From NCBI RefSeq assembly GCF_003612075.1, contig NZ_RAWF01000059.1, positions 1 through 40,012 of the forward strand: a stretch of DNA of 40,012 bases. The letters run 5' to 3'. The notes beneath the pieces are model-generated. The model had not been told where the DNA came from and did no database searches. It worked only from the letters and a program-made list of their open reading frames with translations. Shown here one piece after another: positions 1-32,167 of the stretch (the stretch's first letter is position 1; each line of letters starts with the position of its first letter). The stretch comes from Corallococcus sp. CA041A. Lineage in GTDB: Bacteria; Myxococcota; Myxococcia; Myxococcales; Myxococcaceae. Position numbers and translations under genes: made by a program.

Positions 1-96
1 GTGTTCTACAACCGGAAGCGGCGCCACTCCGCCCTGGGCTACGTCAGCCCAGTGGAATACGAGCGGAGGGCCGCAACCAAGAGGCTGGCAGCGTAG
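1..96 (+). mobile_element. 3' end of an IS3-family transposase (OrfB integrase-core C-terminus), truncated by the window edge
   Basis: Frame 1 reads VFYNRKRRHSALGYVSPVEYERRAATKRLAA*. The RRHSALGY..SP..YE motif is the characteristic C-terminal tail of IS3-family DDE transposases. Only 32 codons are visible, so element ends and inverted repeats cannot be assessed. Confidence 0.6.
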
Positions 97-311
97 TCAA
101 CCTGTCCACCGAACCGGAGCAGGCCCACACCGCCGCACGACCCGCGTGATGGGGACGCGCACGGATAGCGCGCTCGAAGTCCGACATGTCCAGCGCTTCG
201 ACAGCCGCCCATACAGCGCGCACTGGATGCTCTCGGTCAACCAACTGCTCGTAGGTCCGAGCCGCCAGCACCTGCGTCCGTTTCGGCCGGAGCACACGCA
301 CTCGCGGCCGT

Positions 312-1025
312 TTGCTCCCCGCCATGGCGATTCATGCTCGCACAGCAGCGCTTATGCATCCTTTGGATGCATCAGAATCGTTAATTTTTTCTCATCCCCT
401 CAGGGTCGCGGGCGTCTTCTCGGCCGCGGCGGTGCTCCTCATCGGGGCGGCTCATGCTCGGGGGCTGAAGCGCGATGACATCACGCCTGTCTATGTTGGC
501 GCGCACACGCTCGGGGTGGGGGGCGCCTGGCTCCTGGCGTATGCGGCGGCTCGCCTCGAGCGCGCGCGAGCGACGGCGCTCATCGGTGGCCTCTCCGCGC
601 TGTCACTGGCTGGTTTCGGGGCGTACGAGCTCACTGCGCCTCAACCACCGTACAAGGAGATCTCGGAGATCCTTCGCCCCTATCTGGAACCACTGCCGCC
701 CGGGCATGAGAGCTTCATCTCGCCCCGGTACAAGGTTCTTCAGCTCTACCTGTTTCGCAATGGTCGCTACTGGCAGTCCTTCTACACGGAACTCCGGCCG
801 GAGACGCTCGTGGCGAGCATCGCGTCCGGCGAGTACTGCGCCTTCGTCTTCGGCCCGGAGGAGCGTGAAGACCCCCGGCTCGTGCAAATGGAGCGGGACA
901 TCGCGCTGCAGGCCTTGGACTTGAGCGCGGAGTTGCCGGAGGGCGCACGCGGGGGATTCCGCGTCTTCGTGAACCGAGCATGCATGCAGGAGGGCGCGAA
1001 GGGTTCACGCCACGCGGAGGGATGA
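312..1025 (+). CDS. hypothetical membrane protein; start codon uncertain
   Basis: 237-aa ORF with an N-terminal hydrophobic segment (VAGVFSAAAVLLIGAA) and a second Ala/Gly-rich TM-like stretch. The first 30 codons are AT-rich with atypical GC3 for this genome, so the true start is probably downstream (for example the GTG near 433). No recognisable domain. Confidence 0.3.
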   Translation: MLPAMAIHARTAALMHPLDASESLIFSHPLRVAGVFSAAAVLLIGAAHARGLKRDDITPVYVGAHTLGVGGAWLLAYAAARLERARATALIGGLSALSLAGFGAYELTAPQPPYKEISEILRPYLEPLPPGHESFISPRYKVLQLYLFRNGRYWQSFYTELRPETLVASIASGEYCAFVFGPEEREDPRLVQMERDIALQALDLSAELPEGARGGFRVFVNRACMQEGAKGSRHAEG

Positions 1026-1306
1026 CGCCAGCATTCAACGCCGGCTGTCTTCAACGCGCCTTTCCCACCCACACCACATGACCAGCGATCGCTATAGCTG
1101 CTCCATGACTGCTCCTGTTGAGTCATGACATGACGTCGAAGCACCACGGCCCGTTCTGGAAAGTCCAGAGCGGGCCGCGGTAGGTCAAGGGCTGGAAGGT
1201 GGCGGCGTGGTCGGCGCTCTGTCCAGCGTCGTCAACGTTCCGGCCGGACCTTCAGTCCGCGCGGGCCTCCGCGCTGCTCAGGCCCCGGTGCCTCACCCTG
1301 CTACAG

Positions 1307-1400
1307 GTGTTCGCCTTGCTCCGGAATTGGTGTTCGGCTTGTCCCGGAGCCGGTGTTCGGCTTGCTCCGGAATCGGTGATCGGGATCGTCCGGAGCACGC
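1307..1400. repeat. four tandem 23-bp direct repeats (alternating A/B variants) in a 578-bp intergenic region
   Basis: The units are ggtgttcgccttgctccggaatt, ggtgttcggcttgtcccggagcc, ggtgttcggcttgctccggaatc and ggtgatcgggatcgtccggagcacg. Each contains a TCCGGA core. They lie about 200 bp upstream of the lipoprotein gene start at 1604. Confidence 0.6.
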
Positions 1401-1603
1401 ATCCACCCTGAAGGGATGACGTTGAACCCAGAGGTGTCGCGGGCGCGTGACAGGTGGGCAGCGCCAGGGCGCTTCCTGGGGCAGGGAGAATTTCATGCGA
1501 GGGTGGCCCGGATGCGCGTTAGCCTGGAGTTCGCTTTACCAGCCACATCCCGCGCAACCATCGTTGAGATCCCTGCGCCTGCTCGGCGCGGAGAGGGAGA
1601 ACC

Positions 1604-2668
1604 ATGCAGCGCTTTGTCCTCTTGGGTCTTGCACTGCTCACGGCCTGTGCAACGCCTGTCCATCAGGCCGCATCGCCGGTCCAGCCCAGCCCGGTCTACG
1701 TGTTCGAAGGCGTGGAGGTGTTCGGCTCACGCAAGGTGCCCAAGGGCAAGCTGCTGGAGGTCATTGGGATGCCTGCGCCCGGCGCGCGCTTCAACCTCGA
1801 GAAGGGGGAGTTCACGCCGTACCTCATGGAGAGCAAGCCGCGGCTCCTGGCGGCCTACAAGTTCGCGTTCTGCAGGTACTCGATGGTGGCCTACCCGCCG
1901 ACGCGGACGTTCCGGGTGACGGTGGATCTGGTCGATGCCGGAGATGAGTGGCGTATGCCCTTTTCACCCGCGCCGCAGGGCGATATCCCGGAGCCGGAGG
2001 GCCTCCTCACGGCCTGGGATGAATACCAGACGGCCTACTGGAAGCTGAGCAGGGAAGGGGCTGTCCCCGAGTACGGCAAGAGCAAGTGCCATGCCCTCAA
2101 CTGCCATGGAGGATTCGACCACCCCGAGCTCGCGCCGCTGGAGCAGCGCTTCATGGATGGTGTTCCCCGCAATCTCGACACGCTGGTGCGGGTGCTGCGT
2201 GAGGATCGCAACGACTCCAAGCGAATGGCCACGGTCATGCTCCTGCCCTACATCAACTCACGCGAGCAACTGGTGAAGCTCGTTCTCCCGTCGGTGCGCG
2301 ACCCCTACGAGGGTGTGCGCAACGAGGCGCTGCGCCTGCTGGGAACGATGCAGGAGGGACAGCCGCGGGTCATCATCCCGCTGGAGCCCGTGCTCGAAGC
2401 GCTCTGGTACCCGCTCGAGACCGACCGCAACAAGGCAGCCTGGGCGCTCGTGCACATCGTGGAAACCGAAGGCGCCGCCCATCAGCGGCAGATTCTCGAC
2501 AAGGCGGGCGCGGTGCTGGTGGAGATGGCTGGAATGCAGCAGAAGACCGATGCCGAGCCTGCTCGCAAGGTGCTCGCCATCCTGGCGGGGCGGGACCTGG
2601 GTGACGAGCCGGCGGCCTGGCACCGTTGGGTCGAGCAGACGCTCGGCTCGAACAGTGCCCATCGGTGA
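1604..2668 (+). CDS. lipoprotein with HEAT/armadillo-like repeats in the C-terminal half
   Basis: GGAGAGGGAGAACC precedes the ATG. The N-terminus MQRFVLLGLALLTAC carries an LLTAC lipobox. The C-terminal region has repeated RNEALRLLG / DRNKAAWALVHI-type HEAT-like motifs. GC3 codon bias is typical of the host. Confidence 0.6.
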   Translation: MQRFVLLGLALLTACATPVHQAASPVQPSPVYVFEGVEVFGSRKVPKGKLLEVIGMPAPGARFNLEKGEFTPYLMESKPRLLAAYKFAFCRYSMVAYPPTRTFRVTVDLVDAGDEWRMPFSPAPQGDIPEPEGLLTAWDEYQTAYWKLSREGAVPEYGKSKCHALNCHGGFDHPELAPLEQRFMDGVPRNLDTLVRVLREDRNDSKRMATVMLLPYINSREQLVKLVLPSVRDPYEGVRNEALRLLGTMQEGQPRVIIPLEPVLEALWYPLETDRNKAAWALVHIVETEGAAHQRQILDKAGAVLVEMAGMQQKTDAEPARKVLAILAGRDLGDEPAAWHRWVEQTLGSNSAHR

Positions 2669-2719
2669 CGAAGATGCTGCGAAGGCGGCAGTACGGGGGG
2701 CGTAACCCCTGGAACGCAT

Positions 2720-2785
2720 TGGCGGTAGGGCACGGGAATCGAACTCGCCAGGGACTGCTCTCGTAGCCCCTCACCGGTTTTGAAG
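2720..2785. repeat. 66-nt direct repeat (65/66 identical) of the 3' portion of the tRNA-Sec gene; putative attR-type island boundary
   Basis: tggcggtagggcacgggaatcgaactcgccagggactgctctcgtagcccctcaccggttttgaag is identical to 6071-6136 apart from one T/C difference (2764 vs 6115). The repeat begins exactly at the tRNA CCA 3' end and runs to the anticodon loop. Similarity ends abruptly on both sides. Confidence 0.7.
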
Positions 2786-2933
2786 CCCCGCCACACCGAT
2801 CCGCGAGGTGCCCGGGAGGATTGAGGGGTGGCCCGTTTCCCTCTGGCGCGGGGTGGACCGCGAGTCCGTAAAGGTCCACCCGCGTCCGTTCATCTTGGGT
2901 ACAGCTTGGGTACGCGGGTGGGGACGGCAGGGG

Positions 2934-3542
2934 TTAGGGGGCATTGGCTGCACCGGGGCCGGTCACGTCCGTGAACTTCGTGCCGGTGATGACCGCGCGC
3001 TCCAGGGCCTCCTTGATCTCCTCGGACACGATCAAGGCCACGGTCCAGCCCCAGGTGCGGAACACCTTGGCGCCTTCCACCTTCGCCGGGTCGATGCGCA
3101 TCCCGGACACGGAGGAGTACGTACCCACCTTTTCGGGCATCCCGTCCTCCGGGGTCCAGTAACGCACCTCCTCGCACGCTGCATCGTCGATGCACTTCAC
3201 CAGCCGGGTGGCGTTGAGGATGAAGTGCTGAGCGGGCTGGGAGTCGATCTCCACCGGGATGAGCTTCATGTCGTCGGGTGCCAGCTCGGTGAAGAAGGAG
3301 GCCGCCCGGGCGTGGACGACGGGGATGCTGAATGCCGCGTGGGAATAGTCGAGCGGTTTGCCGGAGATCTTGATGGGGATCCTGATGCGCTCGTCCGAGT
3401 GAGCCCGCTGCCCGATCCTGAACTGCCACGGGTCATAGAGCTTGCGCCCTTCCTGATCGAGAGGATGCCCCAGCTCCCACCGGCCGGAGAGGTACACATC
3501 ATCGGTCAACTTGAAGAACCGCGTCGGCATGAGGTCGTCCAT
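2934..3542 (-). CDS. putative (orphan) polymorphic-toxin immunity protein, Imm11/DUF1629-like by recollection
   Basis: 202-aa ORF starting MDDLMPTRFFKLTDDVYLSGRWELGHPLDQEGRKLYDPWQF. It sits 10 nt downstream of the first immunity gene within the toxin locus, on the same strand, and has no signal peptide. The family assignment is from memory only. Confidence 0.45.
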   Translation of the reverse strand: MDDLMPTRFFKLTDDVYLSGRWELGHPLDQEGRKLYDPWQFRIGQRAHSDERIRIPIKISGKPLDYSHAAFSIPVVHARAASFFTELAPDDMKLIPVEIDSQPAQHFILNATRLVKCIDDAACEEVRYWTPEDGMPEKVGTYSSVSGMRIDPAKVEGAKVFRTWGWTVALIVSEEIKEALERAVITGTKFTDVTGPGAANAP

Positions 3543-3552
3543 CCGAGGCGGG

Positions 3553-3903
3553 CTACTCTGGATCGAGCGCCCAGGTTCCTTCTTCCCAGCGCTTCAATGC
3601 CTGCCCGGCTTCAAAGGGAACGAGCCCCTTGCCCTTGGCGGCTTCCTCCAGAACCGCCTTCGCTTCGGCCGTCCGGTAGCGGAGCAGATGGGCGGCGGCC
3701 ATGACACGCACATCCATGCGCTCATGCTTGAGCAGGACGAGGAGGGCATCACGTCCTGCGTTTCCATGGGCCAGGAGCTTATCGACGGCTGCACCGTACT
3801 TCCTGGCGTGCTTGTTTCCCGTCTTGGCATCTCCCCGGAAGATGGCCTCGGTCTGTGCCGCCACGTTCAGGGCGAACTGCTCGACCAATCTCTCCAACGT
3901 CAT
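3553..3903 (-). CDS. DUF2019-like immunity protein (HEAT-like helical repeat) cognate to the upstream toxin
   Basis: Its ATG overlaps the toxin TGA by one nucleotide (GTGATG on the minus strand), as is typical of translationally coupled toxin-immunity pairs. It is 116 aa and helical. LLAHGNAGRDALLVLLKHERMDVRVMAAAHLL resembles DUF2019 immunity proteins. Confidence 0.55.
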   Translation of the reverse strand: MTLERLVEQFALNVAAQTEAIFRGDAKTGNKHARKYGAAVDKLLAHGNAGRDALLVLLKHERMDVRVMAAAHLLRYRTAEAKAVLEEAAKGKGLVPFEAGQALKRWEEGTWALDPE

Positions 3904-5255
3904 CACCAGACCCCCTTCGCCACGTTCTCCATGGCCAGCAGCCCGAAGTCACGCTGGGCCTCGTAGGACTGCGTGCTCAACCATTGCCTCACGGTCAATG
4001 GCGAGCCGGTGATACTACGCCGGATCGACGAGTAGAGCGCGCTGACGTCGGTGTGCAGGATCTTGTCCAGTGGGATGAGGTTCTCGGTGTTGTGGAGGGC
4101 CTGGGGGCCGAAGCGCTTCACGTTGCCCGGAGTTTGCTCGACGATGTGGTGCCACTCCTTGTTCTTGCCCGCCGGGCCCATGGCCTTCTTGAAACCACTG
4201 AACGAGCTCCAGGCCCTGTAGCCCAAGGGACGCGCCTTGGCGGAGGCGCTGCCGCCCGTGGCTTTGGCCCCCATGGCCACCGCGCCGGGCGCGAGGGCGA
4301 TGGTGACGGTCTCGGCGCTCACGGCCACCGTTCCCACGTCCGCGACCGCCGCGAGCCTGATGCCCATTTGCGCTTCAGCCTGGACCGCCGCCTGCGCGGC
4401 GCCTGGGAGCATTGGCACCTTCGACCCCAGCCCCGCCGCCGTGTTCCCAAGGGCGGCCGTTGCCAACATGGCGAACGCGCGCGCCGCGTTGCGGCCCATG
4501 ACCTTGCCGTAGCGCTCACCCGCCTCGCGGAGTTCGTCAAACGTGGTGGCCCGCTCCGCCTCCTCCACCAGCTGCTTGAAGCCCAAGATGAGGCTCCAGA
4601 ACGTATCGACCCCCACGTAGGCAATGAGGGAGGCGGTCATCACGGCGGCCACGCCCTTCGAGAAAGGCTCGGGCACCGCGAGCAAGATGCAGTACGTGGT
4701 CCACGTCCAAAGAACCGCAGCCATCATGGCCTGGGGATCAGCCATCTCCTTGAAGGCGTCCATCATCTCGTCCCGCACGACGCCTTGGGCCAAGGCCATG
4801 GCCAGGGCGTAACGGCCATCTCCGGTGACAGTAGGGCTCTCCACCAGGAGGCGCAGGCAATCGCCGGGTTTGCTCGTTCGCTCGCACCAGCGCAGGTATG
4901 CGCGCGTCAGATCCACCTCTGTCGAGGGGAGATCACCGTCCAGGTGTTCGCCCGGTCCCAGCGGGATGACACGGTGGCTGCGCGGCTCGTACAGGTACGA
5001 ACCGCTGCGCGGATCCATCTCGAAAAACCGCCGGGCCGTTTCCTGGGGATGAGTGGACGGCCGCACGTTCCGGGCGAGCACTGCTACGACTTCAACGAAG
5101 TCGTCTTCGTCCAACTCCACCGGCGCGGCATCGCCGCTGCGTGGGGTGAGGACGATGGGGTCGCCGTGGCCCGTGTGTAGGCGCACGGACTTCGTGGTGC
5201 CGCTGCATCCGGCCAGCATCACGATCAGTAGGGGAATCGACCATCGTGGCAGCAT
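3903..5255 (-). CDS. SitA-like polymorphic lipoprotein toxin with a C-terminal WHH-type HNH nuclease domain
   Basis: Start moved to the ATG at 5255, which is preceded by AGGAGG 8 nt upstream. The N-terminus MLPRWSIPLLIVMLAGCSGT is a lipoprotein signal with an LAGC lipobox. A long variable or hydrophobic central region follows. The C-terminus KEWHHIVEQ...ALHNTENLIPL...ILH matches the WHH subfamily of HNH/EndoVII nucleases (catalytic HH, structural N, metal-binding H). The immunity gene overlaps its stop. Confidence 0.6.
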   Translation of the reverse strand: MLPRWSIPLLIVMLAGCSGTTKSVRLHTGHGDPIVLTPRSGDAAPVELDEDDFVEVVAVLARNVRPSTHPQETARRFFEMDPRSGSYLYEPRSHRVIPLGPGEHLDGDLPSTEVDLTRAYLRWCERTSKPGDCLRLLVESPTVTGDGRYALAMALAQGVVRDEMMDAFKEMADPQAMMAAVLWTWTTYCILLAVPEPFSKGVAAVMTASLIAYVGVDTFWSLILGFKQLVEEAERATTFDELREAGERYGKVMGRNAARAFAMLATAALGNTAAGLGSKVPMLPGAAQAAVQAEAQMGIRLAAVADVGTVAVSAETVTIALAPGAVAMGAKATGGSASAKARPLGYRAWSSFSGFKKAMGPAGKNKEWHHIVEQTPGNVKRFGPQALHNTENLIPLDKILHTDVSALYSSIRRSITGSPLTVRQWLSTQSYEAQRDFGLLAMENVAKGVW

Positions 5256-5614
5256 GCGGAGCCCTCCTGGCGCTGGCGCTCTTTGCTCGGGAGCGCATCG
5301 GTGGCGCAAGGTCGGGTAATACCAGGTAGAACTGACAAGCGCTCCGGGTGGTCACCGGCTGTCGTCGAGCGTGCGGGCCGACGGCGTGCCGGAAGTGTTC
5401 AGGTGCAGTGCGCCCAATGACTAGATTGCTTCCATGGGAGCATCCGGTCTGTCCAAACGCGCCTGCCAGCAGAGGTCCCACGATAGCCCACAGGACCAGC
5501 CGCCGTGCTGTTTTCCCGAGAGCCAAGCGACTCTCCATTGCCATGGGTTCACAGTGACTGGGGGCGATGCTGATCGTCAGGCCCAAGTCAGTCGTTCAAA
5601 TCTAGTTCGGCATA

Positions 5615-6004
5615 CTAGGGGAGCCGGACTGTCCCGATGTGAACTCCAAGTGAGAGGAACGCGTCTCGTCGTACGAGCCCATACTTTCCAGCGGATGAGC
5701 CGCGACCGGCCGACTCGCGGGTATGTTTGGAATAAATGCTGGACGGTAGTGACCAAATGTCAAAGCTGCCGTCGCTCTGTTGGAAAGCACCGAATACGCG
5801 GGACACGCGTGCAAGCATCTTGAAGGTGACACCGACGGTGTCGGTGTCAGGTTTGGCGCACTTGATCACAATCAATTCGTCGTCGAGTAGCGCCTCATTC
5901 GAGATGTTGCTGAGTGGCTTGGCTCCTAGCTTTTCGGCGAGCTGTCGAGCTGTATCACGGCCCCATTGAGCGGCAGTTGCGCCACTTTCCTTATCCTGTG
6001 GCAT
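5615..6004 (-). CDS. hypothetical protein in a low-GC (about 57 %) segment of the island
   Basis: 129-aa ORF. Local GC is clearly below the flanking 70 %, suggesting foreign origin. No recognisable motifs, and coding status is uncertain. Confidence 0.3.
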   Translation of the reverse strand: MPQDKESGATAAQWGRDTARQLAEKLGAKPLSNISNEALLDDELIVIKCAKPDTDTVGVTFKMLARVSRVFGAFQQSDGSFDIWSLPSSIYSKHTRESAGRGSSAGKYGLVRRDAFLSLGVHIGTVRLP

Positions 6005-6070
6005 TTGTGCGTCGACCTCTTGGTAGCTGCTGGCTGGTGACGATGAATCGCTAACCGGATTGCAGAGGTG

Positions 6071-6169
6071 TGGCGGTAGGGCACGGGAATCGAACTCGCC
6101 AGGGACTGCTCTCGCAGCCCCTCACCGGTTTTGAAGACCGGGCCGGCCACCAGGTCCGGAGGCCCTACC
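6071..6169 (-). tRNA. selC: tRNA-Sec (selenocysteine tRNA, anticodon UCA), about 99 nt with a long variable arm
   Basis: Minus-strand sequence GGTAGGGC...CCGGT-CTTCAAA-ACCGG...GAGTTCGATTCCCGTGCCCTACC-G-CCA. It has an 8-bp acceptor stem and a 7-nt anticodon loop with U33, anticodon TCA and A37. It also has a roughly 25-nt variable arm, a GTTCGATTC T-loop, a G73 discriminator and an encoded CCA. One A-C mismatch sits in the T-stem. Confidence 0.7.
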
Positions 6170-6211
6170 GCTTCCGATTACCTCCGCTCCGCCCCAGTCC
6201 GTCAACCACGG

Positions 6212-7180
6212 TCACGGCTTGCGCGCGAACACCACGGCGTACTCGTCGCAGTTGAACAGCGCGGGCCACTGGAGCTGCTCCGGTGTCATCCGCATCGCCT
6301 TGTGCACGTCCGCGCGCACCTGGTGCAGCGACGTGCTCCCCGGATTGCGCTCCAGCTGCGTCATGCCCCGCAGCGCCACCAGCGCCGTGTTCACCGCCGG
6401 GTACACATCCTCCGCGATGGACTCCACCTTCGCGTCCTGGAACCCCGCCCGCCGCAGCTCCGACAGGTAGCGCTCCGTCGACCAGACGTTCTCCTCCGGG
6501 AAGGCAATCAGCCCCCGCCAGTAGCGGTAGCGCAGCCGCGCTCGGAGTCCGGCTCCAGCCTCACGGTCCGTCTTCTGCGCCATGTCCGCCATCACCAGCC
6601 GGCCTCCCGGCTTCAGCACCCGGAAGGCCTCGCGCAGGAAGTCCTGCCGCATCCGGAAGTGCATCGCGGACTCCAGCGCGAACACCACGTCGAATGCTCC
6701 CTCCGGCCCAGGCAGCGCCGTCGCGCTCCCCACCTCCAGCCGGACCACGCCCTCCAACCCCGTCAGCTTCACGCGCTCCCGGCCCACCTTCACCTGGTTC
6801 GGCGTGATGTTCACCCCGACGATGCTCGCGGGCTTGAACTCCTCCGCCCACAGCAGGTCCTGGTCCGCGTAACCGAAGCCGCAGTCCAAGACGGCATCCC
6901 CGGGCCCCAGCTTCGCCGTCCTCGCCAACAGGCGCGCCATCTCCGCCTGGGCGGACCGGAACAGCTCCCCCACGCGCTCCACGTTGGAGTCGTCCACCTT
7001 CTCCACGTGCTTCCAGTAGCCCAGGTTGATCCAGAAGGGCTCCCGGCCCGTTGTCACCCGGATGTCGCTCGGCGCCGGCATCCCCGCCACCCAGGCTCCT
7101 GTCTCGTTCGTATAGAAGCGCTCCGGGTCCGCCAGGAACGCACTCTTCAGCCGCGTCGCGACCTGCCTCACGTTGACCAT
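6212..7180 (-). CDS. class I SAM-dependent methyltransferase
   Basis: CAGGAGG RBS 7 nt before the ATG. Motif I VLDCGFGYADQ and motif post-I/II (VVFALESAMHF, LKPGGRLVM) are typical of the Rossmann-fold methyltransferase family. Confidence 0.75.
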   Translation of the reverse strand: MVNVRQVATRLKSAFLADPERFYTNETGAWVAGMPAPSDIRVTTGREPFWINLGYWKHVEKVDDSNVERVGELFRSAQAEMARLLARTAKLGPGDAVLDCGFGYADQDLLWAEEFKPASIVGVNITPNQVKVGRERVKLTGLEGVVRLEVGSATALPGPEGAFDVVFALESAMHFRMRQDFLREAFRVLKPGGRLVMADMAQKTDREAGAGLRARLRYRYWRGLIAFPEENVWSTERYLSELRRAGFQDAKVESIAEDVYPAVNTALVALRGMTQLERNPGSTSLHQVRADVHKAMRMTPEQLQWPALFNCDEYAVVFARKP

Positions 7181-7358
7181 CGCCAGCCTCCTGGGCCTTC
7201 CAACCGATGGCCGGAACCCTAGCCCGTGTCACGGCAATTCCAGGCTTGGCCTGCATGACGGTTTTCACTGGTGAATGAAGCGGGGCCGCTCGCCCGGTGT
7301 CCCAGGGGGCGCCTTGCCCGGCGCGTCATCCGGGCTCCATGATGAGCGCCCTTCCGCC

Positions 7359-9758
7359 ATGCGCCGAACCTTCCGTTCCGTCCTCCTGGCACCGGGCTTC
7401 TTTCCGGTGCCCGTCCTGCTGCTGTGTCTGTGTCTGTCCTTGAGCGCCGGGGCAGCACCGGCGGCGACGAACGCCAGGCCGTTCCGCGTCGGGCCTCCCG
7501 CCGCGTGGGTGAGGCCGCTTCCCATTCCTCCAGACCCCGGCCCGACTCCCGAGGGCGAGGAGGAGACCAGCGTCTCCCGGCTGCTGATCGAGGAACAGGT
7601 GCGCGTGTCAGGCCCATCGCGCGTGCACTACCTGCACTCGGCCCAGAAGGTCCTCTCTCCGCGGGGCATCGACCGCGTCACGGACATCCAGTTCCGCTTC
7701 GATCCGACGTACCAGAAGCTCACCGTCCACGGCATCTGGCGCATCCGCGACGGCCGCCGCGAGGACGTCTTCCAGCCCGCCGAGGCCCGGGTCATCCAGC
7801 AGGAGACCGAGCTCCAGAACCGGCTCTACAACGGCAACCTCTCCGTGGTGCCCTTCCTCCACGACGTGCGGGTGGGCGACACCGTGGAGGTCGCGTACTC
7901 CTTCGAAGGCGCCAACCCCGTCTTTGGCGGCCGCTTCTCCGACGTCGTCGGCGTGGGCCATTCCCATCCCGTGGTCCACTTCGCCTACCGGCTGCTGTGG
8001 CCGGAAGGGCGGGGTCGCACGCTCTTCATCCGGGACTTCGCCGCGCCGGGCCTGTCGCGCTCGGAGTCGATGCTGAACGGCGAGCGTGAAATCATCCTGG
8101 AGCGCCGCCACGTGCCCGCGGTCCGCCACGAGGACAACGTCCCCGGCTGGCAGCCCGTCTACCCGTGGATCCAGTTCAGCGAATACAAGGACTGGAACGA
8201 CGTCGCGCGCTGGGCCTCCACGCTGTTCCAGGTGCCCGCCCGCTCGAAGTCGCTGGAGCAGGAGGTCCGCCGGCTGTCGAAGGAGCCCACCCCGGAGGCT
8301 CGCTTCCTCGCCGCGCTTCGCTTCGTCCAGGACGAGGTGCGCTACCTGGGCATCGAGATGGGCCCCAACTCCCACCAGCCCCATCCGCCCGACGAGGTCC
8401 TCCAGCGCCGCTTCGGCGACTGCAAGGACAAGTCGCTCCTCTTGGTGTCGCTCCTCAAGGGGTTGGGCATCGACGCGCAGCCGGCGCTCGTGAGCACGGA
8501 CCTCACGCAGCTGCTGGACGGCTTGCGTCCCACCGCCACCGCGTTCAACCACGTCATCGTCCACGCCACCGTGGCCGGCCGCGAGCTGTGGGTGGATCCC
8601 ACGGCGACGCTGGAGCGCGGCGGGCTGGAAAGCTACGAGCCGCCCTCCTACGGCCGGGCCCTCCTCGTCGCCCCCGCCACCACGGCGCTCTCCGTCATCC
8701 CCACGCCCACGCTGACGGAGCCCTCCCTCTTCGTGGACGAGACCTACGTCGCGATGGGCCGCGACGGGGCCGCGACACTCGACGTCGTCACCACGCGCAC
8801 GGGGGCGGACGCCAACTCCATGCGCCGCGCGCTCGCGGGCACGTCCCTGTCCGAGGTGTCCCGCCTCTACTTCAACTACTACGCGAAGACGGACGCGGAC
8901 ATCTCCATCGCGAAGCCCATGTCGGTGGACGACGACACCGTGACGAACGTGCTCGTCACGCAGGAGCACTACCGCATCGAGGACTTCTGGACCTCGGACG
9001 GTCGCCGGGAGTTCCGCGCGCATGGCCTGCGCCAGCACCTCGCCGTGCCGAACTACTCCCACCGAGCCTTCCCGCTGGAGGTGGAGCACCCCGTCTTCGC
9101 CCGCCACCGCATCACGCTGAAGGCCGGCGAACTGCCCCCCGTCAAAACGGAGTACGAGGTCGTGGACGGTCCGGCCTTCCGCTTCGTGGCCGACACCCGC
9201 GCCGAAGGCAAGACGCTGCTGCTCGACTACAGCTACCGCAGCACCGCGGACTCGGTCCCGCCCGAGCGCATCGCCGAGTACGTGAAGGCCCTGCGCGCCA
9301 CCGAGGCCCAGCGCGGCTACGCCATCCAACTCAGGAGCCGAGCCGCCCGCCACCAGGCCTCATCCGTTCCGTCCGGCGAGGCGGGTGCCATCCTCCTGGG
9401 CGTCATCGCGACGTGCCTCGTGCTGTGGTTCGTCATCGCGCAGGGCGGCCCGGTGGCGCTCTGGCGCAAGGGCCGCGCCTGGGGCAGGCGCCGCGCCTTC
9501 GCACGCAAGTTCGACGCGGACCACCGGGGCGACAGCGCCGGGTCCGCCATCCCCATCACCAGCCCGCAGGAGCTGCTGTCCACGCTGGGCCGGCTGCGCT
9601 GCGCCTGTGGAGCCACCAGCGAGGCCCCACGGGAGTCGCTCCGCCACGAGGCCGTCGTCCTGGGCGACCGCCACCTCACCCTGGTGCAGTGGCAGTGCCC
9701 CACCTGCGCCCGAGCCCGCCGCGCCTACTTCGAGGACATGGGCTCGCGCGCCGCCTGA
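7359..9758 (+). CDS. DUF3857 / transglutaminase-like cysteine-protease-fold protein with signal peptide, C-terminal TM helix and a Cys4 tail
   Basis: Start chosen at MRRTFRSVLLAPGFFPVPVLLLCLCLSLSAGAAPA (signal peptide). The transglutaminase-like core RFGDCKDKSLLLVSLLKGLGI sits at about aa 360. A hydrophobic helix (ILLGVIATCLVLWFVIA) near the C-terminus is followed by a CxC...CxxC tail. The upstream ATG at 7275 is also possible. Confidence 0.65.
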   Translation: MRRTFRSVLLAPGFFPVPVLLLCLCLSLSAGAAPAATNARPFRVGPPAAWVRPLPIPPDPGPTPEGEEETSVSRLLIEEQVRVSGPSRVHYLHSAQKVLSPRGIDRVTDIQFRFDPTYQKLTVHGIWRIRDGRREDVFQPAEARVIQQETELQNRLYNGNLSVVPFLHDVRVGDTVEVAYSFEGANPVFGGRFSDVVGVGHSHPVVHFAYRLLWPEGRGRTLFIRDFAAPGLSRSESMLNGEREIILERRHVPAVRHEDNVPGWQPVYPWIQFSEYKDWNDVARWASTLFQVPARSKSLEQEVRRLSKEPTPEARFLAALRFVQDEVRYLGIEMGPNSHQPHPPDEVLQRRFGDCKDKSLLLVSLLKGLGIDAQPALVSTDLTQLLDGLRPTATAFNHVIVHATVAGRELWVDPTATLERGGLESYEPPSYGRALLVAPATTALSVIPTPTLTEPSLFVDETYVAMGRDGAATLDVVTTRTGADANSMRRALAGTSLSEVSRLYFNYYAKTDADISIAKPMSVDDDTVTNVLVTQEHYRIEDFWTSDGRREFRAHGLRQHLAVPNYSHRAFPLEVEHPVFARHRITLKAGELPPVKTEYEVVDGPAFRFVADTRAEGKTLLLDYSYRSTADSVPPERIAEYVKALRATEAQRGYAIQLRSRAARHQASSVPSGEAGAILLGVIATCLVLWFVIAQGGPVALWRKGRAWGRRRAFARKFDADHRGDSAGSAIPITSPQELLSTLGRLRCACGATSEAPRESLRHEAVVLGDRHLTLVQWQCPTCARARRAYFEDMGSRAA

Positions 9759-9761
9759 CGC

Positions 9762-10064
9762 CTACTGGCAGATGCCCGGGCAGTCCGCGCTGCCCCCGGG
9801 CTGGCACGTGTCGGACGGATCATCCACGCAGGTGTTCCCGGACACGTTCCCCGCGCAGCCCCCGAAGAGGCCGCCGCAGCACTCGACGTACCCCTCCGGC
9901 ACGTCACACGGCGTCGGGAAGGACTGGCACGTCTCGCTGTCCGAGCGCGCGAACACCACCACCTGCGGACACGTGCGCGGCTCTTCGTCGTCGTCGCCCA
10001 GACAGCCCGTCAGACCCAGCACCGCCATCAGCCCCAGCTTCGTCCATGCATGCATGGCGCGCAT
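9762..10064 (-). CDS. small Cys-rich lipoprotein
   Basis: MRAMHAWTKLGLMAVLGLTGC carries an LTGC lipobox. The roughly 80-aa mature part has 10 Cys and acidic DDDEE near the lipid anchor. No clear RBS. It overlaps the 3' end of the convergent gene 10085-11158 only if the longer ORF start is used. Confidence 0.4.
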   Translation of the reverse strand: MRAMHAWTKLGLMAVLGLTGCLGDDDEEPRTCPQVVVFARSDSETCQSFPTPCDVPEGYVECCGGLFGGCAGNVSGNTCVDDPSDTCQPGGSADCPGICQ

Positions 10065-10084
10065 CAGGGCAGGGGAGAACGGCG

Positions 10085-11158
10085 CTAGTCCAGCCCCCGC
10101 TCCCACAGGTCGTCTTCATCCAGACCCATCAAGTGACCGACTTCGTGCATCACCGTGATGCCAATCTGTTCGATGAGTTCCTCGCGGGTCCGCGCGAAGC
10201 GCTCCAGGTTCTTCTGGTACAGCACGATGGAGGGCGGGAAGTGATCCGCCGCGTCCATCACGCTGCGCTCGCCCACGGGCGTGCCCCGGAACACCCCCAG
10301 GATGCACGGTGACAGTGGCGGCTGCTGACCCAGCAGGTCCTCATCCGACGGCAGGTCCTCCACCGCCAGCGTCACGTTGTCCATGTACTGCTTCACCTGC
10401 GAGGGCAGGGCGCGCATCGCGTCCTCCACCGCGCGGTCGAACGCCGCCTCCTCCAGCGCCACCGGCGGCGGCAGCTCCTCCGGGGCCAGCGCCTGCGCCC
10501 GGGAGAAGCGCTTCTTCGCCTCCTTCGCATCCTGGCGCCGCTCCGCGACCAGCCCCAGGTAGTGGTGCGCCCAGGCCTCGTCCGGCGCGTCCTTCAACAC
10601 CCGCTCGAAGGCCTCCTGCGCGGGCGCGAAGCGGCACAACTCGAACAGCGCGATGCCCCGCTCCAGCTGCGCGTCCGTCGAGCGCGGCATGTGCGTCAGC
10701 GCCTGGTCCAGGATTTTCAGCGCGGACTCACATTCCCCCAACTGGTTGAGGCCCATGCCCTCCAGGAGGAGGAACTCGTAGACGAGCTCCACGTCATCGG
10801 CCCGCTGCGCCAGCTTCCGCCCGCGGCCGCACCACTCCAGCCCTTCCTCCACCGCCTCGCGGTCCTCGCCGGTGCGGCACACGAGGAATTCCGCCGCGCC
10901 GAAGAGGATCTCCAGGTCTTCCGGGGCCATCTTGAGGGCGGCGCCATAGGCCTTGCCCGCGTCCTCCAGGCGTCCCACCTCCACCAGCGCGGCGGCCCGG
11001 TAGTGCAGGGCTTCTGGTGAGTCCGGAACGTCCCGGAGCAGGGCGTCGGCGCTGGTGAGCGCGGCCTCGAAGTCCCGCGCCTCGAAGGCGTCCGCGACTC
11101 CCTCCAGCCGCGCGTCCATGTCCCGCGCCTCCCCTTGCTTCGCCATGCGCTTCGCCAT
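10085..11158 (-). CDS. TPR-repeat protein fused to a C-terminal minimal zinc metallopeptidase domain (COG3824-like)
   Basis: The N-terminal two-thirds holds several TPR-like helix pairs (ALHYRAAALVEVGRLEDAGKAY..., AHHYLGLVAERRQDAKEA...). The C-terminus VMHEVGHLMGLDEDDL is the HExxH core of the MMP-like predicted Zn-dependent protease family. Confidence 0.7.
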   Translation of the reverse strand: MAKRMAKQGEARDMDARLEGVADAFEARDFEAALTSADALLRDVPDSPEALHYRAAALVEVGRLEDAGKAYGAALKMAPEDLEILFGAAEFLVCRTGEDREAVEEGLEWCGRGRKLAQRADDVELVYEFLLLEGMGLNQLGECESALKILDQALTHMPRSTDAQLERGIALFELCRFAPAQEAFERVLKDAPDEAWAHHYLGLVAERRQDAKEAKKRFSRAQALAPEELPPPVALEEAAFDRAVEDAMRALPSQVKQYMDNVTLAVEDLPSDEDLLGQQPPLSPCILGVFRGTPVGERSVMDAADHFPPSIVLYQKNLERFARTREELIEQIGITVMHEVGHLMGLDEDDLWERGLD

Positions 11159-11246
11159 TCGGGCCGGCAGCTAAGAAGCCGTCCTTCGCGTTGTCAACGA
11201 CCGGCGTCGCTGTTACCTTCCAGCGCCCCGTTTCGGCCCGAACCCC

Positions 11247-11603
11247 GTGAACATCCTGGTCGTCGACGACGATTACGAGCTGTGCACCATGCTCTCTCGC
11301 TACCTGGAGATGCATGGCTACACCGTGTTCTCGGCGTCGGACGCGCTCCAGGCCCTGGACATCATGGAGCGTCACCCCGTGGGGCTGGTCATCACCGACT
11401 ACCTGATGCCCCACCTGGACGGCATCCACTTCACGGAGATGCTGAAGGCGGACCCCCGCTTCCAGCGCATCTCCGTCCTGATGATGACCGCCAGCACGGA
11501 CGCCAACATCTCCGACCGGGGCCTGCGCAAGGGCGTCGCCATCACCCTGCAGAAGCCCCTGGACATGGGGCAGCTGCTCAACCTCGTGCGCTTCGCGGAG
11601 TAG
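11247..11603 (+). CDS. single-domain response regulator (CheY-like receiver)
   Basis: GTG start. NILVVDDD, the phospho-acceptor context LVITDYLMP and the conserved T/K (MMTAS...QKPLD) are all present. There is no output domain. Confidence 0.8.
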   Translation: MNILVVDDDYELCTMLSRYLEMHGYTVFSASDALQALDIMERHPVGLVITDYLMPHLDGIHFTEMLKADPRFQRISVLMMTASTDANISDRGLRKGVAITLQKPLDMGQLLNLVRFAE

Positions 11604-11707
11604 GGCCTTCCCAAGGCGGCCCGGCCCCCCACCCGGACGGGCCAGTAGGCGTCCTCAGGCCCACACGGCTGCCCCTTTCCGTTGACATCGTCGATGCGGC
11701 CCTTATG

Positions 11708-11734
11708 TTGGCGCTCGACATGGCCGAGTGCTAA
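11708..11734 (+). promoter_or_regulatory. CIRCE (HrcA operator) inverted repeat upstream of groEL
   Basis: TTGGCGCTC-N9-GAGTGCTAA compared with the consensus TTAGCACTC-N9-GAGTGCTAA: the right arm is perfect, the left arm has two mismatches, and the spacer is 9 nt. It lies about 50 bp upstream of the groEL ATG. Confidence 0.7.
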
Positions 11735-13426
<1,692 letters not shown>

Positions 13427-30360: not shown

Positions 30361-30554
30361 CGGACTGGTCCTCCTGGGCAGGTTCTTCAGTCTCAGCGGA
30401 TCGATCTGCTGAAGCTGAAGTTGCTGGAATCACTGGTTTCACACGATTGTGACTGGGAATGCGAAACTGATCGCATTGCCTTTCGATAATCCGGGCAATC
30501 CAAGCACGTCCGCGGCGCCTTTGGTCGCGGCCAGACATAGAGGGGTCTTCTCCG

Positions 30555-32167
30555 TGACCGTCTCCAACATCCGCGTCAATTCGGGCGACACGCTTTCCGG
30601 CCTCGCGAAGCGCTACAACACGACCGTTGACGCGCTGGCCAAGGCGAACAACATCAAGGATCCGAACAAGATCCTGGCCGGCCAGACGCTGAAGGTGCAG
30701 GACGGTTTCGACACGAAGGGCACCAACAAGTCGAGCGCGGGGACGAAGACGTCGGGCGACAGCTTCACGCAGTCCACGGACGGCGCGAAGACGACCACGC
30801 CCGCCGCGAACACGAACTCCAGCAGCGCGACCAACGGGGAGCTGGGCGGGCTGAGCCGCAAGTACGAGGCTCGCGGCCCCGGCACCGTGTCCACGGGCAA
30901 GGGTGACAAGGGCGGCGTGTCCTACGGCTCCTACCAGTTCGCCTCCGCGAACGGGTCCGCGCAGTCGTTCGTCAACTCGCTGAAGAAGACGAACCCGGAG
31001 TTCCACAAGGCGCTGTCGGGCAGCAAGCCGGGCACCGCGGAGTTCTCCGCCGCGTGGAAGCAGCTGGCCGCGAAGGACCCGAAGGGCTTCGACAAGGCGC
31101 AGCACGACTACATCAAGACCACGCACTACGACGCGGGCGCCGCCAACATCAAGAAGGCGACGGGCATCGACCTGGACAAGCGCTCCGCGGCGCTGCGGGA
31201 CGTGGCCTGGTCCACCTCCGTGCAGCACGGCCCGGGCAAGGCGGACGACATCTTCAAGAAGGCGCTCAACGGTCGCGACCCCGCGAAGGTGAGCGACGAG
31301 CAGCTCATCAAGGACATCTACGCCGAGCGCGGCCGCACCAACGCCAGCGGCACCCTGGTGCACTTCTCCGGCAGCTCCAAGGACGTGCAGAAGGGCGTGG
31401 CCAACCGCTTCAAGTCGGAGGCGAAGGACGCCCTCGCGATGCTGAAGCAGGAGAAGTCGGGCACCACGACCAAGCCGGCCAACACCAACACGGGCGTGGT
31501 TCCCCCGTCCGTGAACAACGGCTCGAAGCCGGGCACCACGGAAGGCAAGCCCACGACGCAGGGCACGAACACCTCCAAGCCCACCACGGAGGCGGCCCCC
31601 GCGAACACGGAGCAGGTGGCCCCGTCCAAGGACAAGCCGGCGGTGCACGTGAAGGTGCCGTACTACAGCCAGTTCGAGAACGGCCACGGCTACACCGCGA
31701 GCGACACGGCGTGCTTCAAGGCCGCGACGGCGATGGCGCGTGACTCCGGCGCGACCGTGCTGGGCCCCGACCGCCGCATCCAGGTGGGCAAGAGCGAGAA
31801 CGGCGTCGGCGCGCTCAACGTGGACTCGAAGAAGGCCGCCGAGGGCCGCAGCTACATCGACAAGCAGCTGGAGGCCGGCAAGCCGGTGGTCGTGGGCGTG
31901 AGCCACAAGGACGCGAGCTACAACGCGGACGGCCTCACGGACCACTTCGTGACCATCACGGGCCGCGGCGTCGACGACAAGGGCCGCACCTACTACACGT
32001 TCCACGACCCGGGCACGAAGAACGCCAGCACGGGCAAGGACACGAACCCGAACAACCGCTTCTACGTGGATGACAAGACCGGGAACATGTACCGCCCCGG
32101 CAAGGCCGCGAACGGCTACGTGACCGAGCGCCACTACGACGTGGCCATGGTGCGCATCAACAAGTAG
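30555..32167 (+). CDS. LysM domain / central unknown domain / C-terminal C39-like (papain-fold) cysteine peptidase; no signal peptide
   Basis: GTG at 30555 with AGAGGGG 9 nt upstream (the ATG at 30449 is an alternative). LysM: [43 protein letters not shown]. An Ala/Thr/Lys-rich linker follows. The C-terminus has [24 protein letters not shown]...DHFVTITG...HDPG (C39_2-like Cys/His). Confidence 0.6.

Follow-up and report, generated by a model that had tools for sequence, protein, structure and literature searches.

The sitAI5 cassette and its genes

The window analysed here is the whole 40,012-nucleotide (nt) stretch at positions 1 to 40,012 of contig NZ_RAWF01000059.1 from Corallococcus sp. 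CA041A. As shown in Table 1, a gene for a 450-amino-acid (aa) lipoprotein toxin of the SitA5 family lies on the reverse strand beside a selenocysteine tRNA (tRNA-Sec) gene, and is followed by a DUF2019 gene and an Imm11 gene. It is highly likely, in our view, that the lipoprotein signal, the SitA5 escort domain, the HNH-like C-terminal tip and the DUF2019 immunity gene make up a functional-looking sitAI5 cassette within a tRNA-Sec islet.

An earlier, sequence-only reading of the window had described a toxin open reading frame (ORF) at this place with a LAGC lipoprotein signal, and an AGGAGG lying 8 nt before its ATG. The ORF, the signal and the AGGAGG were all recovered; the spacer was counted as 7 nt. 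The N-terminus of the toxin reads MLPRWSIPLLIVMLAGC, in which the lipobox L-A-G-C ends at Cys17, and Cys17 and the box L-[ATVS]-[GA]-C are invariant in an alignment of 110 full-length homologs. The GC content at third codon positions (GC3) is 0.84 as measured on ORF 3903-5309, which includes the toxin gene. Because of this value and of the SitA5_escort match given below, we take the toxin ORF to be a genuine gene rather than a reading frame that is open by chance. Its TGA stop shares the A at 3903 with the ATG of the DUF2019 gene (junction TGGTGATGACG), which is the TGATG overlap with a 116-aa DUF2019-like gene already pointed out in the sequence-only reading. An alternative GTG start at 3906 would give a 117-aa DUF2019 product.

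Table 1. The sitAI5 cassette, the repeats that bracket it and the other genes of the tRNA-Sec islet.
Feature	Position	Strand	Basis and remarks
Right copy of 69-nt direct repeat, anticodon loop to CCA end	2720..2788	(-)	97% identical to left copy
Orphan Imm11 immunity gene, 202 aa	2934..3542	(-)	Pfam PF07791, E=3.1e-12, 46.7 bits (cutoff 22.1)
Probable sitI5-type immunity gene, 116 aa, DUF2019 (HEAT-like, all-helical)	3553..3903	(-)	Pfam PF09450
Toxin ORF (sitA5), 450 aa and stop	3903..5255	(-)	
C-terminal toxin domain (tip), probably HNH_2-like, residues 342-450 (conserved from ~345)	3906..4232	(-)	Alignments, AlphaFold model, profile search
Ala/Gly/Val-rich pre-toxin linker, residues 275-341	4233..4433	(-)	Conserved in SitA5; precedes the AHH tip in L009 too
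SitA5 escort (delivery) domain, residues 9-274	4434..5231	(-)	NCBIfam NF050093 SitA5_escort
Lipoprotein signal peptide, lipobox LAGC, Cys17 lipidated (predicted), Ser at +2	5205..5255	(-)	Read from sequence
Shine-Dalgarno AGGAGG	5263..5268	(-)	Read from sequence; upstream of ATG at 5255
129-aa ORF adjoining tRNA	5615..6004	(-)	No Pfam, NCBIfam or PHROG match; not an integrase
Left copy of 69-nt direct repeat = tRNA-Sec 3' part	6071..6139	(-)	Repeat search
tRNA-Sec, anticodon TCA	6071..6169	(-)	ARAGORN; Rfam RF01852, 70.5 bits

The toxin belongs to the SitA5 family

The toxin protein matched the SitA5_escort model NF050093 with 386.6 bits against a cutoff of 160 (E=5.6e-116), and the whole model was covered (1-262 of 262). 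Two hydrophobic helices lie inside the escort domain at about residues 185-230. At E<=1e-10, a search with the full protein returned 1,087 relatives. Coverage among the best 120 of these was 82-100% (mostly at least 97%) and identity 64-93%; they came from Corallococcus, Myxococcus, Pyxidicoccus, Stigmatella, Archangium and Cystobacter, and many of them already bear the NCBI or UniRef name 'SitA5 family polymorphic toxin'. The nearest relative among the matches listed was C. exiguus WP_172813180 (93% identical), and full-length proteins of other Corallococcus genomes were 91-93% identical to the window toxin. Some homologs sit on plasmid records without annotation. The marks by which a SitA5 protein is recognised at the sequence level were all found: a lipobox signal, the escort domain, a modular tip and an immunity gene directly downstream.

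SitA5 proteins are outer-membrane lipoproteins that are passed on by TraAB-mediated outer-membrane exchange; to enter the cell, their escort domain makes use of ExbB1 and MXAN_0057, their C-terminal nuclease tips are swappable, and sitAI loci are often found on mobile DNA (PMC8546572). The window cassette resembles this family in the lipoprotein signal, the full-length escort domain and the modular C-terminal nuclease-like tip, and likewise in the two-gene sitAI organisation, in which the immunity gene overlaps the toxin gene, and in its place on variable or mobile DNA. No difference at the level of the family was found. The SitA-type lipoprotein polymorphic toxin proposed in the sequence-only reading can therefore be narrowed to SitA5. 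The same reading had also expected a new combination of toxin tip and immunity gene, which did not hold up: there are at least 120 full-length homologs, and the same tip with the same immunity gene is common among proteins named SitA5. As judged from these sequence comparisons, the cassette adds another allele to a known family, and both the cassette and its place in the genome have counterparts elsewhere. Dozens of sitAI cassettes are present per strain.

The tip is a polymorphic-toxin module

A profile of the tip was made from 40 close relatives (A1) and searched against 1.84 billion representative proteins. It found 2,234 protein clusters at E<=1e-3; at the stricter E<=1e-30 there were 437. 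Of the 144 top matches that could be scored, 138 had a tip ending no more than 4 residues from the C-terminus. The host proteins were varied. They included Rhs/TcdB-type toxins of ~2,000 aa, SitA5 proteins, one inverse-autotransporter-like protein and a secreted Priestia megaterium protein in which the tip stands behind a PT-TG pre-toxin domain, and the tip also occurs as a stand-alone 149-aa protein on the megaplasmid of Ralstonia pseudosolanacearum GMI1000 (L018 3430-5677). At the Ralstonia locus, a tyrosine recombinase gene lies immediately upstream of the 149-aa copy and of the HEAT/DUF2019-like partner of this copy.

The SitA5 escort domain was found with another tip as well: in locus L009 it bears an AHH tip (PF14412, E=1.3e-23). 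Because one tip occurs on several hosts and one escort domain occurs with different tips, the window tip is taken as a polymorphic toxin domain, and the number of clusters, the C-terminal position and the variety of hosts bear out this part of the sequence-only reading. The identities of escort domain, tip and immunity protein are mosaic among loci. In these comparisons the putative junction of toxin-tip swaps is the end of the pre-toxin linker (residue ~341).

Many relatives of the tip are proteins of 73-186 aa (P0010, P0021, P0033, P0045 and P0103 among the matches). Some are 93-aa forms beginning at an internal Met, in others an internal deletion has joined the N-terminal part of SitA5 directly to the tip, and in one an escort domain is fused with half of a tip. 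These forms suggest that recombination and decay of such cassettes are frequent. A stand-alone small protein was at one time considered for the tip, as the first tip-only search gave proteins of at most 186 aa. That result was explained by fragments, orphan modules and the word index, and the idea was dropped once full-length searches showed full-length homologs.

Evidence for a probable HNH_2-like nuclease

The motif KEWHHIVEQ...HNTENLIPLDKILH occupies residues 366-401, which lie between 85 and 50 residues before the C-terminus, and so not within the C-terminal ~60 aa where the sequence-only reading had put it. The 40 close relatives share H369, E373, N389 and H401 without exception, and W368, H369, H370, E373, N389, N392 and H401 are all invariant in the 110 full-length homologs. 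In a wider set of 117 members, W368 and H369 are still invariant and H370, E373, N392 and H401 are at least 90% conserved; N389 falls below 90% there. The H...N...H catalytic residues of the HNH/EndoVII (His-Me) superfamily are thus present in the alignments. C-terminal of them follows a strongly conserved segment, S..YSS...TVRxW...Q..FG.

An AlphaFold model built on A1 had a predicted local distance difference test (pLDDT) score of 95. In tip numbering, the first strand of the model (25-29) closes with HH; two short helices come next, then a second strand (52-56), and the last His is on the helix after it (57-67). The predicted layout of the tip is beta-beta-alpha-metal with an insertion. The invariant residues are found in the model on strand 1, just ahead of strand 2 and in the opening turn of the helix, which is where His-Me nucleases have theirs. 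The spacing from N392 to H401 is 9 residues, and that from N118 to H127 in colicin E9 is also 9.

Among Pfam families, HNH_2 (PF13391) was the only one that recurred among the 117 members, in 14 of them below the cutoff with a best E of 0.013. The Ralstonia GMI1000 member was the sole one to pass the cutoff of this model (21.4 bits, E=2.3e-4). This protein is a full member of the family, as it matches the tip profile with 73.5 bits over the whole domain. In the work on SitA5, one tested allele, SitA5-Mf1, was described with 'HNH nuclease (PF13391)' (PMC8546572), which is the same Pfam model that stands nearest to the window tip. The tip of SitA5-Mf1 and the window tip may be the same.

As to differences, the window tip shares the HH...N...H motif on a predicted beta-beta-alpha core with Pfam HNH_2 and HNH-EndoVII, whereas it departs from them by a helical insertion between the strands, by an added helical lobe of ~45 residues and by having no zinc-binding cysteines. 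The tip is placed as an un-modelled branch of the HNH superfamily with HNH_2 as the nearest Pfam family. We consider it likely that the tip is an HNH_2-like His-Me nuclease.

Several results weigh against this assignment. The window tip itself, scanned alone against Pfam at E<=10, reached only 13 bits with HNH_2 (E=0.095) where the cutoff is 21, and the Ralstonia member exceeded that cutoff by just 0.4 bits. With the full toxin protein, Pfam gave no match, and no NCBIfam model covers the tip. Sequence and profile searches of solved structures found no relevant relative. Foldseek gave nothing at E<1 against the PDB and nothing significant against BFVD, where most of the named matches were HNH endonucleases. 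The conserved helical lobe (YSS...TVRxW...QxxFG) is not standard for HNH proteins. Membership of the AHH family was tried and rejected: trimmed tip alignments compared with 37 AHH domains had an hhalign probability of 1.2-1.4%. Trimming was used since the untrimmed comparison had aligned only the common SitA5 linker. In a literature search, the motif string HHIVEQ had no match.

These results would suit a tip that is toxic and not an HNH enzyme, such as a metal-independent RNase or an enzyme that is no nuclease at all, in which the HH/N/H residues are coincidental. Every structure search was weak, neither a solved relative nor a similarity to AHH emerged, and more than half of the conserved residues are in the helical lobe, outside the putative active site. 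However, the weak matches converge on one HNH model, and the matched span of the HNH_2 profile is near-identical in three proteins (those of the window and of locus L005, and the Ralstonia member). One genuine member of the family passes the curated cutoff, and both the places of the invariant residues in the model and the 9-residue spacing shared with colicin E9 agree with a His-Me nuclease. A coincidental HH/N/H pattern is therefore considered unlikely. As for the proposal of an HNH endonuclease tip, it is retained for the broad superfamily, through the HNH_2 links and the model, and given up for the WHH flavour (see below). A match to an HNH model, which had been suggested as a check, stayed below the cutoff for the window protein and exceeded it narrowly for its divergent Ralstonia relative.

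The tRNA-Sec islet and the state of the cassette

The 69-nt repeat (0 chance matches expected) encloses an islet of 3,351 bp between its two copies. Four genes only are present in the islet: the 129-aa ORF, sitA5, the DUF2019 gene and the Imm11 gene. Pfam, NCBIfam and PHROG scans found no integrase among these four ORFs. The 129-aa ORF lies within the lowest-GC stretch (56-58%) of the profiled region 1-12,000.

A C. exiguus contig (L017), 98.65% identical to window positions 6070-10000, has the same tRNA-Sec, a sitAI5 cassette 92% identical to that of the window and the same closing repeat. By this identity, the window stems from C. exiguus or from a near relative of it. The L017 islet lacks the Imm11 gene and the 129-aa ORF and has another small ORF and an apparent IS3-type element, whose transposase was recognised by eye in the ORF translations without a Pfam scan. 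The DNA past the closing repeat differs between the two. In Corallococcus coralloides (L016, CP034669), positions 5779-10777 hold two full sitAI5 cassettes in a tandem array, together with a truncated Imm11 gene, an N-terminal sitA5 fragment and a third DUF2019 gene. A copy of the tRNA-Sec repeat, 45 nt long, closes the array; nowhere in the 17.4-kb L016 locus was a tRNA gene detected. Neither L016 nor L017 has a counterpart of the window DNA on the left side of the repeat copy at 2720. In other species, the cassette is found at unrelated sites, one of them beside a tRNA-Leu gene (L001).

The sequence-only reading had called the cassette tRNA-borne, and this was confirmed by the tRNA-Sec 3' repeat that brackets the islet and by the use of the same site in C. 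exiguus. As in tRNA-targeted islands, a direct repeat of the 3' part of the tRNA (anticodon loop to CCA) brackets the insert, and the cargo at one site varies among close relatives (the window and L017). Unlike such islands, the window islet is just 3.35 kb long and has no integrase or mobility gene, and the C. exiguus islet has only the IS3-type element.

The Imm11 gene starts 10 nt after the DUF2019 stop. Imm11 is known as a partner of Tox-AHH (PMC3482391), and a 52%-identical Imm11 gene stands behind the AHH-tipped SitA5 toxin of L009. No cognate AHH-type toxin was found in the window. Since Imm11 pairs with AHH-tipped toxins and none is present here, the window gene is regarded as an orphan. 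From its neighbourhood, it could be either a leftover of the replacement of one tip-immunity module by another or a gene retained against the toxins of neighbours.

Arrays in which a tip fragment and a DUF2019 gene follow a full toxin gene were found in L001, L008 and L016. They resemble the orphan arrays of Rhs and contact-dependent inhibition (CDI) loci, where tip fragments and then intact immunity genes stand behind a full toxin. A leftover immunity gene of other specificity, like the Imm11 gene behind the active pair of the window, is also known from those loci. The systems differ in delivery, which is by an Rhs cage or a CdiA filament there and by a lipoprotein escort domain here, and the window has no toxin fragment before the Imm11 gene, just the 10 nt after the DUF2019 stop.

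It can be asked whether the cassette is a decaying remnant that is not expressed or delivered, so that only its immunity genes matter, against the toxins of neighbours. The islet without integrase and with an orphan Imm11 gene would fit such decay, and so would the common truncated or internally deleted toxin copies (P0021, P0045, P0103 and the 93-aa forms) and the tip fragments in L001, L008 and L016. No sigma-70-like promoter was found by a promoter and terminator scan either, but the scan covered one promoter type only and is not informative for myxobacteria. On the other hand, the window ORF runs uninterrupted over the full length behind a strong ribosome-binding site, and its product keeps the lipobox and every one of the invariant catalytic residues and is 91-93% identical to full-length proteins of other Corallococcus genomes. 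Decay of the window cassette is therefore judged improbable, and we continue with a functional-looking cassette.

The DUF2019 gene is probably the immunity gene of the tip

The DUF2019 product of the window matched PF09450 with 27.1 bits against a cutoff of 23.3, and its homologs had 24-39 bits. The DUF2019 profile matched PDB 2I9C, a structural-genomics entry, over the full length (E=1.4e-7). In all 13 of the myxobacterial toxin-immunity pairs, the DUF2019 gene lies at most 15 nt behind the tip, and the overlap of toxin stop and DUF2019 start is repeated in homologous loci. A 108-125-aa DUF2019/HEAT-like gene, usually overlapping the stop, also stands behind the tip of the Rhs toxins of L011 and L013 and of the inverse-autotransporter-like protein of L015. 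The same kind of gene stands likewise behind the truncated Archangium copy (L012), the Ralstonia copy (L018) and the Priestia copy (L019), and indeed behind the tip in every neighbourhood inspected.

The identities of tip and immunity protein co-vary among loci (r=0.71, reached by 0 of 2000 permutations). Escort identity does not track them, which fits module exchange. No signal peptide of the DUF2019 product was seen by eye. In the literature searched, DUF2019 is mentioned in unrelated work only. From the conserved neighbourhood, the DUF2019 gene is probably the immunity gene of the tip. The toxin-immunity arrangement, for which the sequence-only reading had argued from the overlap in the window, was seen again in the 13 myxobacterial pairs and in the Rhs, PT-TG and stand-alone contexts.

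A chaperone or adaptor for the export or activity of the toxin would be another role for DUF2019, as HEAT-like helical repeat proteins are often adaptors and Pfam still lists DUF2019 as of unknown function. Such a role appears very unlikely. DUF2019 goes with the tip and not with the delivery domain over at least five delivery contexts in three phyla, it is kept behind tip fragments in orphan arrays, and its sequence co-varies with the tip. The absence of a visible signal peptide is what a cytoplasmic immunity protein requires.

Positions 8001-8488 of L010, a record titled Comamonas sp. KCTC 72670, hold a toxin-tip fragment with 78% aa identity to that of the window, and the DUF2019 gene of this locus is 90% identical to that of the window. 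The organism of the record may be mislabelled, or the genes may have been transferred recently.

Comparison with the WHH and AHH families

The signature of Tox-WHH (PF14414) consists of WHH, L, H and HxG, and the partners of this family are Imm-SUKH, Imm28 and Imm37 (PMC3482391). The sequence-only reading had assigned the tip to the WHH flavour, and its literal W-H-H tripeptide, conserved as given above, speaks for this, but membership is most unlikely: the window tip had no PF14414 match at E<=10, PF14414 was outside the 25 most-matched Pfam families of the 117 members at E<=1, His401 is followed by T-D and no HxG was present in 26 sequences inspected or in the consensus of A1 or A3, the A1 member P0096 has LHH in place of WHH, and the partner is DUF2019 and not Imm-SUKH, Imm28 or Imm37.

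Tox-WHH and Tox-AHH (PF14412) nevertheless resemble the window tip in two ways, since they take the same C-terminal place on polymorphic toxins, including Rhs, and have an xHH motif that closes the first strand. Tox-AHH is in addition found, in L009, on the same SitA5 escort domain as the window tip. The signature downstream of the motif is unlike that of the window tip in both families, and Tox-AHH has Imm11 and other partners where the window tip has DUF2019. The sole AHH match was a weak one of the Ralstonia member (E=0.022).

Proposed action of the cassette and its meaning

From the work on SitA5 (PMC8546572), the window lipoprotein would be anchored in the outer membrane and transferred through outer-membrane exchange to neighbours with a compatible TraA receptor. 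A point against this reading is that the window contains neither traA nor traB. The escort domain would then use inner-membrane proteins such as ExbB1 to bring the tip into the cytoplasm, as proposed for SitA5 (PMC8546572). There the tip might cut nucleic acid with its predicted His-Me (HH...N...H) metal site. Clonemates would survive because the cytoplasmic DUF2019 protein, which would not itself be transferred, binds and blocks the tip. The extra Imm11 gene would be leftover or stockpiled immunity against an AHH-tipped SitA5 toxin.

For kin-recognition biology, the cassette is one more allele and adds little alone. The tip is a toxin domain of wide distribution that escapes the Pfam and NCBIfam models now in use, tied to HNH_2 only via a divergent member. 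Across Myxococcota, Proteobacteria and Bacillota, DUF2019, for which structure 2I9C is available, behaves in these neighbourhoods as a putative immunity protein of the tip. The tRNA-Sec islet illustrates the shuffling of cassettes at one chromosomal site among close Corallococcus relatives.

Other genes in the window

A 23-nt unit (GGTGTTCGGCTTGCTCCGGAA-like) is present three times in tandem at positions 1306-1396, upstream of the gene for a HEAT-repeat lipoprotein (1604-2668). A valyl-tRNA synthetase gene (19289-22783, (+)) encodes a C-terminal tail of ~115 residues that matches histone H1-like HC2 and extensin models, which suggests that the tail is of low complexity. An otherwise ordinary core region contains a gene (24359-26638, (+)) for a 759-aa bacterial homolog of the eukaryotic major vault protein, with MVP_shoulder (E=9e-45) and Vault repeat domains 1-4. 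The gene at 30449-32167 (+) encodes a 572-aa protein with LysM and a type VI secretion system (T6SS) VgrG3-like C-terminal (peptidoglycan-degrading) domain (E=2.8e-53).

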